A stretch of 64,000 nt of DNA from Escherichia coli (GTDB lineage: Bacteria; Pseudomonadota; Gammaproteobacteria; Enterobacterales; Enterobacteriaceae): the NCBI RefSeq assembly GCF_024700885.2, contig NZ_CP117016.1. One strand, given 5' to 3'. Position 1 is the first letter of the stretch. Each line of letters begins with the position of its first letter. Shown piece after piece: positions 38,139 to 43,233 of the stretch. A model generated the notes under the pieces. It did no database searches, was not told the origin of the DNA, and saw only the letters and a list, made by a program, of their open reading frames with translations. The translations under genes and the position numbers were made by a program.

Positions 38139-40142
38139 TTAACGAACCAGGTGCAGGAAGTGCAGATGTTTTTCGTACTGGTCCAGTATGTCATTAATCA
38201 GCTGTTCCTGGTTCCAGCCCATCACATCATAATTTTGACCGCCTTCTTTGAGATAAACCTCAGCGCGATAATATCGATGTTGTTCAGTCTGCTGCTCATC
38301 ATTATCCATTGCGGCGAGCGCGAAGGTCGGTGAGATATACCCGCGAAGCCTCACTTCATATATAAAATTCAGCTCGTTGCCCAAATCGACTTCAAGACGA
38401 ATACGATCGTCGACTGCATCACTAATGTGGCTTATCGTCCCCTGCTTGTTCAGTTCCTCCTGAACCAGCGTCATGGCGGGCTGGATAACGTCGTCCATAA
38501 AACGTTTCACAAGAGATCGCTTCGGCAGATACGCGATATTGCGTAACCTTCTCTGCCAAGGAATTGGGTTACGTGCAGCCGTAGGAGCAATTGTCGCCAT
38601 GCTCAGGCTTTCACGCTTGGTCAAATCCCGGCGCAAAGCTTTTAAAAGTCCGTATATAGATATTAGTAAGATCACTGAGAAGGGCAATGCACTCGCTATT
38701 GTCACCGTTTGCAGCGCACTTAGCCCTCCGGCAAGGAGAAGCGCAATTGCAACAATGCCCATGAGCGAGGCCCAGAATATTCGCTGCCAGACGGGTGTGT
38801 TTGCCACTCCACCTGATGCCAGAGTATCCACAACCATTGCCCCCGAATCAGCAGACGTTACAAAGAAGACGATGACCATCGCCATTGCAATGAATGACAG
38901 CACAGAAGAGAACGGGAAATGCTCCAGGAAATTAAACAGGGCCAGCGCCACATCCTGCTGAACAGTATTGGCGAGGTCTGTGGCCCCCTGGTTCATAATG
39001 AGATAGATCGCGCTGTTACCAAACACCGTCATCCACATTAGCGTAAAACCCGCGGGAACAAACAGCACGCCGGTGACAAACTCGCGAATGGTTCGCCCGC
39101 GGGAGACTCGTGCGATGAACATCCCCACAAACGGCGACCATGAAAGCCACCATCCCCAGTACAGTAATGTCCAGCCCCCCAGCCAGTTGCTCGACTTGGG
39201 CTCATACGCGTAAAGGTTGAACGTTTTACTCACCAGTTCCGAAAGATAACCGCCCGTATTTTCCACAAATGACTTCAGCAGAAGCACGGTTGGTCCCAGA
39301 CACAGGACCAGCGCCAGGAGCAACAAAGCCAGACCCAGATTGAGTTCAGACAGGATACGTATTCCCTTATCCAGACCGGACACCACTGAAATCGTCGCTA
39401 ACCCCGTGATGACCACGATCAGAATTACCTGCACCGTTTCATTGATGGGCACCCCGAAAAGATGGTTCAAACCGGCATTCACCTGCAAAACACCGTAACC
39501 CAGTGATGTCGCAACGCCAAAGACCGTGCCTATAACAGCGAAAATATCAACCGCATGTCCTACAGGTCCGTATATGCGATCGCCAATAATGGGATAGAGT
39601 GCGGAGCGCAGAGTTAAAGGCAGACCGTGACGGTAACTGAAGAACGCCAGAATCAGCGCCACAATGGCATAAATTGCCCATGCGTGCAGTCCCCAGTGGA
39701 AAAAGGTCAGACGCATTGCTTCCTTAGCTGCCGCAACGGTTTCTGGAGTGCCAACGGGTGGCGAAAGATAATGCATTACAGGTTCGGCAACGCCAAAGAA
39801 CATCAGGCCGATCCCCATCCCTGCCGAAAAAAGCATCGCAAACCAGGAGTGGTAGCTGAAATCAGGCTGCGCATGGTCCGGGCCCAGCTTGATATCACCG
39901 TAGCGTGAGAGTCCAAGGAACGTGACACTCAGTAAAATCAGGGCCACAGCAAGGATGTAGAACCAGCTGGCATTCGTGAAGATTTGTTGCTGAAGTAGTT
40001 TAAAATTTTTGTCGGCGACATCCGGGAATACGGCGGCAAAGGCGACAAGAAGGAAAATTAGCAAAGCAGATGTAAAGAATACCGCTTTGTTAATCTGACT
40101 TGTAGACTTCTTTGGGATTGTATCATTTTCACTCATAATCAT
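38139..40142 (-). CDS. BCCT-family betaine/carnitine/choline transporter
   Basis: 667 aa; BetT-like polytopic protein with long C-terminal cytoplasmic tail. Confidence 0.75.
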   Translation of the reverse strand: MIMSENDTIPKKSTSQINKAVFFTSALLIFLLVAFAAVFPDVADKNFKLLQQQIFTNASWFYILAVALILLSVTFLGLSRYGDIKLGPDHAQPDFSYHSWFAMLFSAGMGIGLMFFGVAEPVMHYLSPPVGTPETVAAAKEAMRLTFFHWGLHAWAIYAIVALILAFFSYRHGLPLTLRSALYPIIGDRIYGPVGHAVDIFAVIGTVFGVATSLGYGVLQVNAGLNHLFGVPINETVQVILIVVITGLATISVVSGLDKGIRILSELNLGLALLLLALVLCLGPTVLLLKSFVENTGGYLSELVSKTFNLYAYEPKSSNWLGGWTLLYWGWWLSWSPFVGMFIARVSRGRTIREFVTGVLFVPAGFTLMWMTVFGNSAIYLIMNQGATDLANTVQQDVALALFNFLEHFPFSSVLSFIAMAMVIVFFVTSADSGAMVVDTLASGGVANTPVWQRIFWASLMGIVAIALLLAGGLSALQTVTIASALPFSVILLISIYGLLKALRRDLTKRESLSMATIAPTAARNPIPWQRRLRNIAYLPKRSLVKRFMDDVIQPAMTLVQEELNKQGTISHISDAVDDRIRLEVDLGNELNFIYEVRLRGYISPTFALAAMDNDEQQTEQHRYYRAEVYLKEGGQNYDVMGWNQEQLINDILDQYEKHLHFLHLVR

Positions 40143-40246: not shown

Positions 40247-41493
40247 TGAGGTGTACTGGCAATAGCGGACACTACCATTTGTTCTTTTTTTAAGCAGCCA
40301 TCTGATGATATTTTTCCCTGAAGGCTGCCGGGGAGATATTCCCCAGACGAGAGTGACGACGCTGACGATTGTAGAAAATCTCAATGTATTCCCGTATTAC
40401 TGAGATGGCTTCATCCCGGTTATTAAAACGATAGTGGCTCAGGCTCTCATTTTTCAGCGTTCCCCAGAAGCTTTCCATCGGAGCGTTGTCGTAACAGTTA
40501 CCTTTACGCGACATTGATGTTTTCAGACCAAACTGCTCCTGTATGACACGGTAATCGTATGCGCAGTACTGTGAACCTCGATCAGAGTGGTGGATTAGCC
40601 CGGCAGGTGGGCGCTGGCTCCTGAGCGCCATAAACAGGGCTTTACCTGTCAGCTCTTTTGTCATGCGCTCTCCCATGGCGTAGCCGACAATTTCGCACGT
40701 ATAAACATCTTTGATGCCAGCGAGGTACAACCATCCCTCCTGTGTGGCAACATACGTCAGGTCCGCCACCCAGACCTGATTTGGTGCTGTAGGAGCGAAC
40801 GTCTGGTTCAGCAGATTTGGCGCAACTGGCAGATTGTGGTTCGAGTTCGTAGTCGCTCTGAACTTGCGTTTCTGCTTACAGCGTAGCCTTAGCTCCTTAC
40901 GAAGACGTGCCAGTCGGTCACGACCAACGATGATGCCATTCTCTGCCAGCTCCGTCTGGAGCTGCCGGGTTCCATATGTTTCGCGAGTGCGGATATGCGC
41001 CACCTTAATCTCCAGTTTTAGCCGCTCATCACTTTGTTTTCTGTCTGAGGGTTCATGCTGTACCCAGTTGTAATAACCGCTCCTGGATACACCAAATACC
41101 TGACACATCGCTTCAATGGGAAATTGTTGTCGCCATTGTTCGATTAACGCGTATTTTTCAGCGACTCCTGTGCAATTTAATATATCTCGCTCAAGGCGAG
41201 CTTCATTTAACGCCTTACGCAGTTGCAGAATTTCAGATTCCAGTTCAGCCACCGTGCGGGAACCAGGAGTACCGAGCCCTTTTCTGGCGGCGGTAACCCA
41301 TTGTCCTAAAGTGCCTTCAGGAAGAGATAATCGGGAAGCACCTTCACTGATCGAAAGTTGATTTTCAAGAACCGTTCTGACAGCTTCGGCTTTGAACTCT
41401 TTAGAGTAACGTTGGGTTTTTCTGCTCATTATTAGCTCCTTCTGATGCCATTCTATTTCAGGAAGGAGTGTCCGTTAAACTCAGGCTACCTCA
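40247..41493 (-). mobile_element. IS3-family insertion sequence (1247 bp), imperfect terminal IRs TGAGGT...CGGACACT
   Basis: Terminal repeats at 40247-40276 and 41464-41493; internal transposase. Confidence 0.7.
40290..41429 (-). CDS. IS3-family transposase encoded as a single fused OrfAB reading frame (379 aa)
   Basis: N-terminal HTH and C-terminal DDE integrase core (ADLTYV, HHSDRGSQY, YDNAPMESFW) in one uninterrupted frame. Confidence 0.75.
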   Translation of the reverse strand: MSRKTQRYSKEFKAEAVRTVLENQLSISEGASRLSLPEGTLGQWVTAARKGLGTPGSRTVAELESEILQLRKALNEARLERDILNCTGVAEKYALIEQWRQQFPIEAMCQVFGVSRSGYYNWVQHEPSDRKQSDERLKLEIKVAHIRTRETYGTRQLQTELAENGIIVGRDRLARLRKELRLRCKQKRKFRATTNSNHNLPVAPNLLNQTFAPTAPNQVWVADLTYVATQEGWLYLAGIKDVYTCEIVGYAMGERMTKELTGKALFMALRSQRPPAGLIHHSDRGSQYCAYDYRVIQEQFGLKTSMSRKGNCYDNAPMESFWGTLKNESLSHYRFNNRDEAISVIREYIEIFYNRQRRHSRLGNISPAAFREKYHQMAA

Positions 41494-41575
41494 TTGGTTC
41501 CCACTACTTATTTGGTGGACACCACTTTGTCTAATTCGTCAGATTCTGACCAGACGGTTCAGGCTGTACGCTTAC
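41494..41575 (-). mobile_element. Orphan IS66-family terminal fragment (82 bp)
   Basis: Same 82-bp string as 49521-49602, the left end of the IS66 copy at 47315-49602, ending ...GTACGCTTAC. Confidence 0.7.
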
Positions 41576-41609: not shown

Positions 41610-42554
41610 TCAAGGGTACGGGTCCGCTTCGTTTGATTTGCGTGTTTTTAACAATTTTAAAACCCAGACATACTGTTCCGGATGTGGCCCCACCAAAATT
41701 TCCACTGTTTTGTTCATTTGTCGGGCAATCATTTTATTGTCCGCGCTGGCAATGCAAGCATCCATTGGTGGCCGAATTTCAATAGTCAGGAGATGTTTTT
41801 TTTCATCATAAACCGGGAAAAGTGGTATAATCATAGCCTGACTGATGTTCATCAGACGTCCAATGATTGGTAATGTCGCTTTATAGGTCGCAAAAAAATC
41901 AGCAAATTCACTGTATTCAGGACCATGATCCTGATCTGGGAGGTAATATCCCCAGTATCCCTGGCGTACTGACTGAATAAATGGTTTTATCCCATCCTCC
42001 CGGGCATGTAAGCGCCCCCCGAATTTACGCCGTACTGAATTCCAGACATAATCAATCACTGGATTTCGTTGCTGATGAAACATGGCGGCCATTTTTTTTC
42101 CCTGAGCTGCCAGCAACATTGCAGGAATATCCACGCTCCAGCCATGGGGAACCAGAAAAATCACATTTCTATTATTGTGTCGAATTTCCTCAAGAATTTC
42201 GAGGCCTTTCCAGAACACTCGTTTCTGGAACTTTTCCGGACCACGAATTGCCAGTTCTGCCATCATCACTATGGATTGCAATGCTGTGGCAAACATTTTG
42301 TCGACAATTATTTCCCGTTCTGTATCACTCTTTTCTGGGAAACAAAGCGATAAATTAATCGTCGCCCTGCGACGAGCTTTTTTGCTCAATCTGCCCACCC
42401 AACGCCCTATTTTTGCCAAGACAGGATCTCTGAATGAAGGGGGAAACATTGAAATACCTGCAATCATTCCCAAAAGGAACCATGTAGACCAGTAAACAGG
42501 GGAAAGGTAATTTTTCTTAAATTCAGGAATAAACTCAGATTTATATTTTTTCAT
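41610..42554 (-). CDS. Lipid A secondary acyltransferase (LpxL/LpxM family, MsbB2-like)
   Basis: 314 aa; LpxM-family call on overall similarity (acyltransferase H-box region around VPHGWS); adjacency to a virK-like gene as on Shigella virulence plasmids. Confidence 0.7.
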   Translation of the reverse strand: MKKYKSEFIPEFKKNYLSPVYWSTWFLLGMIAGISMFPPSFRDPVLAKIGRWVGRLSKKARRRATINLSLCFPEKSDTEREIIVDKMFATALQSIVMMAELAIRGPEKFQKRVFWKGLEILEEIRHNNRNVIFLVPHGWSVDIPAMLLAAQGKKMAAMFHQQRNPVIDYVWNSVRRKFGGRLHAREDGIKPFIQSVRQGYWGYYLPDQDHGPEYSEFADFFATYKATLPIIGRLMNISQAMIIPLFPVYDEKKHLLTIEIRPPMDACIASADNKMIARQMNKTVEILVGPHPEQYVWVLKLLKTRKSNEADPYP

Positions 42555-42618: not shown

Positions 42619-43233
42619 TTAATTTAAATTCTGATGTTCTGAGTGTACAGGATATGCATCCAAAGAGCGGATAGTAGTTTCATGGATATAATCCAGCAAA
42701 GCGTATCGTTTTCGGTACTCAGAGCGTTTTTTACTGGCTATATCGCTTAGCGGCTTTCGAATCACCTGGGTTGGTAATCTGTACCAGTCACCACAGGTTT
42801 TTCCTGCTACAGACTCCCAGAAATCACTATAGACCGCAACAAAGGTTTTGCGTTTCTGATACCAGTATCTCAATTGCCGGAAAACATGACTGTGCTCACT
42901 GACTGCCAGACACTCAGAGATATTGCAAGCTTTCATCAACGCACAAAATGCTTCAAAAATAATCCGTTTTGGGAAAATCCCATAACAGGCCCGGGTTGCG
43001 CACCGAATAACATCAGGTCCGGTATTTTTAGGGGCTCCCTGTAATCCGCCAATAAAAGCAATGTGTCCATTTTGAGTCAGAATGACTGAAAATGTTAACC
43101 GGGCAATAACTGTTTTATTGTAAAACAATGACAACATCAACTCTCCTTCCCGGTCAAAACCACTGGGAGAACACTGGATATCAAAATTCTCTCCATCTTT
43201 CCCGATGAATTGGACTAATGATACCGATTTTTG
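42619..43233 (-). pseudogene. VirK-like (DUF535) gene, 5'-truncated at the IS1 boundary
   Basis: C-terminal 173 aa (IGGLQG, ACYGIFPKRI, RKTFVAVYSDFW); ORF runs into the IS1 end at 43234. Confidence 0.55.

Follow-up and report, generated by a model that had tools for sequence, protein, structure and literature searches.

Elements of the IS3 family have imperfect inverted repeats with TG...CA termini, encode a transposase with an N-terminal HTH region and a C-terminal DDE (rve) core in two overlapping frames, orfA and orfB, which a programmed -1 frameshift at an A-rich slippery heptamer connects, and duplicate 3-4 bp of the target site. The ALIL pseudoknot (RF01497) is the frameshift stimulator of IS3411 and of at least 27 further IS elements, and frameshift pausing is thought to aid co-translational binding of the IS911 transposase in cis (PMC5009743). 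In engineered frame fusions of IS2 and IS911, OrfAB is the main product and the fused frames provide active transposase (PMC3219604, PMC2909936). Zipper-like mutations impair IS2 OrfAB (PMC3219604). Canonical IS600 reaches high copy number in Shigella (PMC7373316).

Here we analyzed an IS600 copy in a 64,000-nucleotide stretch of Escherichia coli DNA (the window). A preliminary description had reported an IS3-family element with one continuous 379-codon HTH-DDE frame and no slippery heptamer at the junction, and had proposed that it makes full-length transposase constitutively, as either a hyperactive copy or a non-regulated dead end. We find that the window element is a mutated copy of the known IS600 that is common in public genomes and generically annotated there.

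Results

A complete IS600 copy with a single transposase frame

The interval 40247-41493 singled out in the preliminary description has the exact ends of the element, which is complete and lies on the minus strand (Table 1). Its arms are 27-nt imperfect inverted repeats (TGAGGT...ACCTCA) with intact TG...CA termini. As the IS600 reference we used the 1264-bp plasmid copy of S. sonnei 53G, so named by RefSeq. The window element differs from it by one 17-nt deletion and four SNPs and is otherwise identical; with 4 substitutions over 1247 aligned positions and a single 17-nt gap, it lies within the at least 95% nucleotide identity used here to define IS600. The element sequence matched thousands of E. 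coli and Shigella records. In RefSeq, the 1264-bp relatives are named 'IS3-like element IS600 family transposase', and the protein identical to that of the window is WP_000088351.1, an 'IS3 family transposase' annotated as an ordinary CDS with no programmed frameshift.

The ORF encodes 379 aa, including the peptide quoted earlier (RLERDILNCTGVAEKYALIEQ). Pfam detected HTH_Tnp_1 (PF01527, residues 3-75, E = 2e-23), HTH_21 (PF13276, residues 134-190, E = 1e-12) and rve (PF00665, residues 214-312, E = 6e-26), as well as rve_2 and rve_3, all in this one frame. The DDE triad is intact, with D223 and D283 inside rve and E319 just downstream. The promoter-like site within IRL is the same as in canonical IS600 and is a weak prediction, the number of sites returned by the scan being that expected from shuffled sequences. 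A search of solved structures gave no PDB relative at E ≤ 0.001. Together with the inverted repeats, these domains bear out the assignment to the IS3 family with HTH and DDE regions in a single frame. The parental IS600 has the two-frame arrangement with -1 frameshifting, and its absence from the window copy is a secondary loss.

Table 1. Features of the fused IS600 copy and its surroundings, in window coordinates
Feature	Position	Strand	Remarks
BCCT-family transporter gene	38139..40142	minus	
IS600 derivative, complete	40247..41493	minus	1247 bp; canonical IS600, 1264 bp
IRR	40247..40273	minus	27 nt, same as canonical IS600
Fused orfA-orfB frame	40290..41429	minus	379 codons and stop
E319	40473..40475	minus	DDE triad
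rve (DDE) catalytic core	40494..40790	minus	Residues 214-312, Pfam
D283	40581..40583	minus	DDE triad
D223	40761..40763	minus	DDE triad
Deletion junction	41175..41177	minus	AAT codon (Asn85) across the join, which lies between 41176 and 41175
HTH_Tnp_1 DNA-binding and coiled-coil region	41205..41423	minus	Residues 3-75, Pfam
Promoter-like site within IRL	41450..41478	minus	TTAACG-17-TAGAAT; consensus scan, 9/12 matches
IRL	41467..41493	minus	27 nt, same as canonical IS600
Flank between lpxM and IRL, outside the IS	41494..41575	minus	82 nt, IS3-type-end-like remnant
lpxM	41610..42554	minus	
ORF upstream of lpxM	42619..43140	minus	173 aa

A 17-nt deletion fuses the frames

In canonical IS600, the orfA frame reads TTA AAA AAA GCA at the slippery site (heptamer A AAA AAA). 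A -1 slip yields OrfAB of 385 aa (...DILKKSNSVFCTGVAEK...), and orfA itself stops 14 codons later to give an OrfA of 100 aa. Alignment with IS600, which the preliminary description had suggested as a way to find the indel, located it here: the missing 17 nt are AAAAGCAACAGCGTATT, canonical positions 319-335. The region GATATATTAAAAAAAGCAACAGCGTATTTTGCACAGG of canonical IS600 reads GATATATTAAATTGCACAGG in the window copy, where GATATATTAAA is joined directly to TTGCACAGG. Neither an A6G nor an A7 heptamer is present at this junction, as had been noted; the A7 run went with the deletion. Since 17 is 18 minus 1, the deletion has the same effect on the frame as a -1 shift and places orfA and orfB in one frame. 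The 379-aa product corresponds to OrfAB with K85-F91 (KKSNSVF) replaced by N, and is thus six residues shorter. The fused copy is no longer able to yield OrfA. A search for direct repeats or quasi-palindromes that could have caused the deletion gave no convincing microhomology besides the A run. The comparison indicates that the fusion arose by mutation of one IS600 copy.

Besides the A7 run, the deletion took away the spacer and most of a downstream stem's 5' arm (7 of its 9 nt). In canonical IS600, a 9-bp stem (GCGTATTTT/AAAATACGC) is predicted beyond the slippery run, with a 6-nt spacer between the two. Folding gave the canonical 77-nt region a minimum free energy of -13.2 kcal/mol, against -4.8 for the window version, in which the stem is lost; compared with shuffled sequences, the stem-loop was non-significant (z = -1.24). 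The Rfam model RF01497 matched canonical IS600 at 328-430 with 14.3 bits (E = 0.84), below the threshold of 50 and to be read as a lead only. This weak match begins within the deleted segment, and the window copy gave no match to the model. The downstream stem probably stimulates -1 frameshifting in canonical IS600.

Reliable fused copies lie at one locus

We searched for the fused form with a 54-nt probe centred on the join, which cannot seed on canonical IS600. Of 5426 complete E. coli genomes, 460 (8.5%) had the exact junction, at 468 places in all, and 460 of the 461 junction-positive records matched at 99% identity or more. The junction form had a median of 1 and a maximum of 2 copies per genome, and many carriers were without any other IS600 sequence. 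The exact protein occurred in 3383 blocks of the collection in the index. All ten distinct contexts listed for it lie directly upstream of a BCCT-family transporter gene, and lpxM (msbB2) was called directly upstream of the IS in eight of them; of the two exceptions, L011 has IS1 in place of the left side and L013 has no genes called in the adjacent flanks. Allele P0005 is likewise at the lpxM-IS-BCCT locus. A probe for the junction between the lpxM-side flank and IRL hit 488 records at 80% coverage or more, approximately the 461 with the 17-nt deletion and the 29 with a sister allele described below.

Two deletion junctions were found in 7 records, in keeping with the 8 that have two lpxM-side flank junctions. 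CFSAN061761, the one two-copy record of the seven that was inspected, carries a second whole island at a distance of 1.27 Mb, and the transposase alleles of the two islands differ; its second copy reflects duplication or double acquisition of the island and not transposition of the IS. The deleted IS of TOE17 and of CB209 retains the lpxM flank and its right side is joined to a different region, which indicates the expected product of recombination between two IS600 copies. On the TOE17 record (L111, 3404545-3413941), the left side of the island is cut by IS1B beside aadA1, and on the right the deleted IS is joined to a C4-dicarboxylate transporter/hypT region, not to BCCT.

An active IS is expected at two or more independent sites, flanked by target duplications; in the 460 complete genomes, the fused form has one locus. 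Every reliable fused copy is at this locus, lpxM(msbB2)-IS-BCCT transporter.

Four records labelled as plasmids also carried the 1247-bp form. We rejected these as a sign of mobility, given that all four share the same lpxM-side junction; each of the three inspected contains the lpxM-IS(-BCCT) segment, and such records are probably fragments of the chromosome or circles formed by excision of the island.

Among metagenome contigs, a gapped pattern scan picked out 82. The 17-nt deletion was present in 29 of them, mostly with the flanks of the lpxM locus. Four to six deletion-bearing contigs had other flanks, among them L080, with a perfect 3-bp duplication (AAC/AAC). These contigs are short-read assemblies across a 1.25-kb repeat, and left and right flanks were paired in many combinations among them. 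In N32, a complete genome, the IS600 at the left flank of L080 is canonical, the two flanks of L052 belong to separate arrangements in complete genomes, and neither the L080 nor the L052 arrangement, the two compared in this way, was found in any complete genome. With flanks shuffled across contigs and L080 and L052 unmatched in complete genomes, we did not accept the new-flank contigs as evidence of transposition and attribute them to chimeric assembly through the repeat or to gene conversion; rare real transposition is possible behind some of them.

The insertion site and its island

At the locus, lpxM, the transposase gene and the BCCT gene follow one another in constant order on one strand, with 147 bp between the transposase and BCCT genes. 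No 3-bp target duplication is present at the window site, where the flanks are CAA and ACA in IS orientation, and the 3-4 bp duplication typical of the family is thus missing. Other IS600 copies have one, namely CTG (L002), ACC (L006) and TCT (L020). The missing duplication suggests that the copy at this site arose by recombination or by end-targeted insertion.

End-targeted insertion has been described for IS911. The reverse complement of the 82-nt flank next to IRL (TGGTTCCCAC...GGTGGACAC) resembles an IS3-type terminal repeat, which suggests end-targeted insertion here, and the flank may be an isolated IS end into which IS3-family elements tend to insert. Many IncF plasmids from E. coli, Klebsiella and Salmonella contain these 82 nt as well. 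In pPA45B, the one IncF plasmid inspected, a different IS3-family-type end (TGATCTTACCCACC...) abuts the flank at the same nucleotide.

A sister allele of 1261 bp occupies the same site in 29 complete genomes, including IAI39 (L018:2561-3821), NCTC86 (L019) and CE10. It has an intact A7 run with CAG deleted 4-6 nt downstream, within the spacer/stem, and PGAP annotates it as a frameshifted pseudogene. The locus is thus dimorphic, with both alleles altered within the same ~20 nt. No canonical, ancestral IS600 was found at the lpxM locus in complete genomes, where only the 3-nt and 17-nt deletion alleles occur; metagenome contig L039 has a canonical copy with both locus flanks and is perhaps chimeric.

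The locus belongs to a larger island, shf-capU-virK-lpxM-IS-BCCT-DUF2254 (shf, polysaccharide deacetylase), which we take to be a relative of shf-capU-virK-msbB2, a cluster found on virulence plasmids in Shigella and EAEC. The two island copies of CFSAN061761 (L113 3036504-3046557 and L001 4309265-4318605) differ in allele, and that in L113 is bracketed by IS3-family elements. The island was also found as a 21-kb circular 'plasmid' record, pEC11-5 (L004), and looks like a mobile or excisable unit itself. Upstream of lpxM, the window has a 173-aa ORF at the virK (DUF535) position of intact islands; in a genome whose context is 100% identical, PGAP has a DUF535 gene there that is truncated and frameshifted and lies beside IS1. 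The window island appears to be partly eroded on the virK side.

Age and selection of the fused allele

We recovered 21 haplotypes with the 17-nt deletion. The ORF is intact in 20 of them and frameshifted in one. The same locus also holds a haplotype (L003-L005, L063) that combines the deletion with canonical bases at all four SNP sites, and the deletion is therefore older than the four SNPs of the window copy. Among the 21 haplotypes, the variants were 21 nonsynonymous and 6 synonymous, where random change is expected to be 77% nonsynonymous. Canonical copies had the same ratio (41:11), so the comparison does not discriminate; within this limit, the variants gave no sign of selection maintaining the fused ORF.

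Other lesions in the recoding segment

Further IS600 derivatives have lesions at the same place. A 14-nt deletion in the EIEC pINV record CP119444.1 (L006:1501-2750) fuses the frames into 380 aa, with target duplication ACC; its junction was absent from the 5426 RefSeq E. coli genomes. A 13-nt deletion in plasmid CP065612.1 (L007:1501-2751) does not fuse them. An 80-nt deletion between 7-nt repeats GCGTTAA (P0057, L020:3937-5120) again gives a fused frame, of 358 aa, at one locus (a php/PTE gene) with duplication TCT. Each of these three deletions removed the slippery site. Three further lesions of this segment came from metagenome contigs: four clustered substitutions (GCAACTGTAGATT, in 13 contigs), a loss of 4 nt, and a loss of 3 nt distinct from that of the sister allele. 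In all, eight lesions lie in or across ~20 nt, comprising deletions of 3 (two different), 4, 13, 14, 17 and 80 nt and the substitution cluster, and three of the eight (14, 17 and 80 nt) fuse the frames independently. The 13- and 14-nt deletions were found with a gapped query and the 80-nt deletion by a protein search that favours fusions, and these finds are biased accordingly. The pattern scan, which is free of this particular bias, gave for complete elements 2 indel events in the 19-nt segment versus 3 in the remaining ~1200 nt, small numbers that are suggestive of an indel hotspot at the recoding signal.

P0071, a 391-aa RefSeq conceptual transposase, has a foreign IS3-family N-terminal region followed by IS600 OrfB. 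Its join falls exactly at the frameshift site (…EKEILKPSNSVFCTGV…), which suggests that two unlike IS elements recombined at their conserved recoding region.

Discussion

The window element is probably a degenerate, effectively immobile frame-fused IS600 copy carried as a passenger of its island, and most likely a relic that does not move and drifts neutrally. That no new insertions are seen argues that the fused copy is inactive or transposes very rarely; the intact ends, promoter-like site and DDE residues count against inactivity. Engineered fusions that preserve the OrfAB sequence are active, so loss of frameshift control alone cannot explain immobility. The residues lost lie directly after L84 of OrfAB, and by our reading of the heptads (V60, L63, I67, L70, L74, A77, R81, L84, and in native OrfAB N88 and F91) the L84 region would be the last turn of the coiled-coil. 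Haren et al. reportedly found in 1998 and 2000 that the leucine zipper is essential for IS911 activity. By analogy with the zipper requirement of IS911 and IS2, immobility is likely to result from loss of the zipper end.

We envisage that a 379-aa OrfAB* would be translated with no need for recoding and in the absence of the OrfA regulator. Loss of six residues at the C-terminal end of the leucine-zipper/coiled-coil would make multimerisation and end binding poorer, and the frameshift-associated pause favouring co-translational action in cis would be gone. The IS would then persist as a passenger, with the island as the unit that is inherited, duplicated and exchanged. Of the preliminary description, the fused frame that lacks a slippery site stands, and the full-length transposase does not, the product being six residues short of OrfAB.

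Is the fused copy instead a constitutively active or hyperactive source of transposase, transposing more than canonical IS600 or mobilising other copies in trans? Its inverted repeats, promoter-like site and DDE triad are intact, the fused frames of IS2 and IS911 made in the laboratory are active (PMC3219604, PMC2909936), and a few metagenome contigs have the deletion between other flanks, in one case with 3 bp duplicated. Against this, the 460 complete genomes have one copy each and at most two, the contexts inspected all belong to one island, many carriers have no other IS600 sequence, the flank pairings of the metagenome contigs are unreliable, and the protein is six residues short at the end of the coiled-coil. 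We consider such activity unlikely, and favour the dead end over the hyperactive copy of the two outcomes originally proposed: the fused form is locus-bound and mostly single-copy, and a non-regulated dead end fits the data. A similarly low probability attaches to the view that the recoding segment is a mutational or selective hotspot with recurrent escape from, or loss of, frameshift control, and that the 17-nt allele is a low-level transposase source acting in trans or by end-targeted insertion. Loot et al. reportedly found in 2002 that OrfAB-only IS911 carries out end-targeted insertion.

Retention of the element by the host, for example as transcription signals for the BCCT gene or as a DNA-binding regulator, would agree with an ORF intact in 20 of 21 haplotypes, with the constant one-strand order lpxM > transposase > BCCT and with the frequency of the allele (8.5% of complete genomes). 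The 21 nonsynonymous to 6 synonymous variants are those of random expectation, however, and hitch-hiking on the island accounts for the frequency. Moreover, the sister 3-nt-deletion allele, a pseudogene according to PGAP, occupies the same site in 29 genomes, and the fusion itself is therefore not required. Domestication is accordingly very unlikely. That the single frame stems from an error of sequencing or assembly, or is the norm in a single-ORF IS3 subgroup, as the preliminary description had allowed, is hardly conceivable: 460 complete genomes, all independent, and 29 contigs from metagenomes share the identical junction, and the closest relatives, a deletion and four SNPs apart, have A7, two frames and a programmed frameshift in RefSeq. 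The fusion is thus a mutation of an element whose near-identical relatives have two ORFs.

What thousands of assemblies call an 'IS3 family transposase' can be relabelled as a frame-fused IS600 that has lost 17 nt and is probably inert. Its confinement to one locus through at least 21 haplotypes is a population-scale argument that losing frameshift control alone yields no successful element. As a natural OrfAB-only, OrfA-less element, it could serve to test what the last zipper heptad, OrfA and frameshift pausing each contribute. The clustering of lesions in the recoding segment, if confirmed, merits a proper survey.

Compared with IS600 itself (IS3 family, IS3 group; Shigella sonnei and E. 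coli), the window copy has the same inverted repeats, domains and DDE triad, but is 17 nt shorter, has one ORF and no A7, has lost part of the stimulator and encodes a product with six residues fewer. Unlike multi-copy IS600 (PMC7373316), it is single-copy and locus-bound and has no 3-bp duplication at its site. ISSfl10 (376 aa) is an IS600 with a 27-nt in-frame deletion in the catalytic region and is still frameshift-dependent. The 14-nt and 80-nt derivatives resemble the window copy in having a deletion of 2 mod 3, no slippery site and fused frames, but they are independent, with other end points and loci, at one locus each and far rarer than the 17-nt form. Like the laboratory frame-fused OrfAB of IS911, IS2 and IS3 (PMC2909936, PMC3219604), the window copy needs no recoding and has lost OrfA; the laboratory fusions had one base added and left the OrfAB sequence unchanged, whereas the window copy has a natural 17-nt deletion and six residues fewer.
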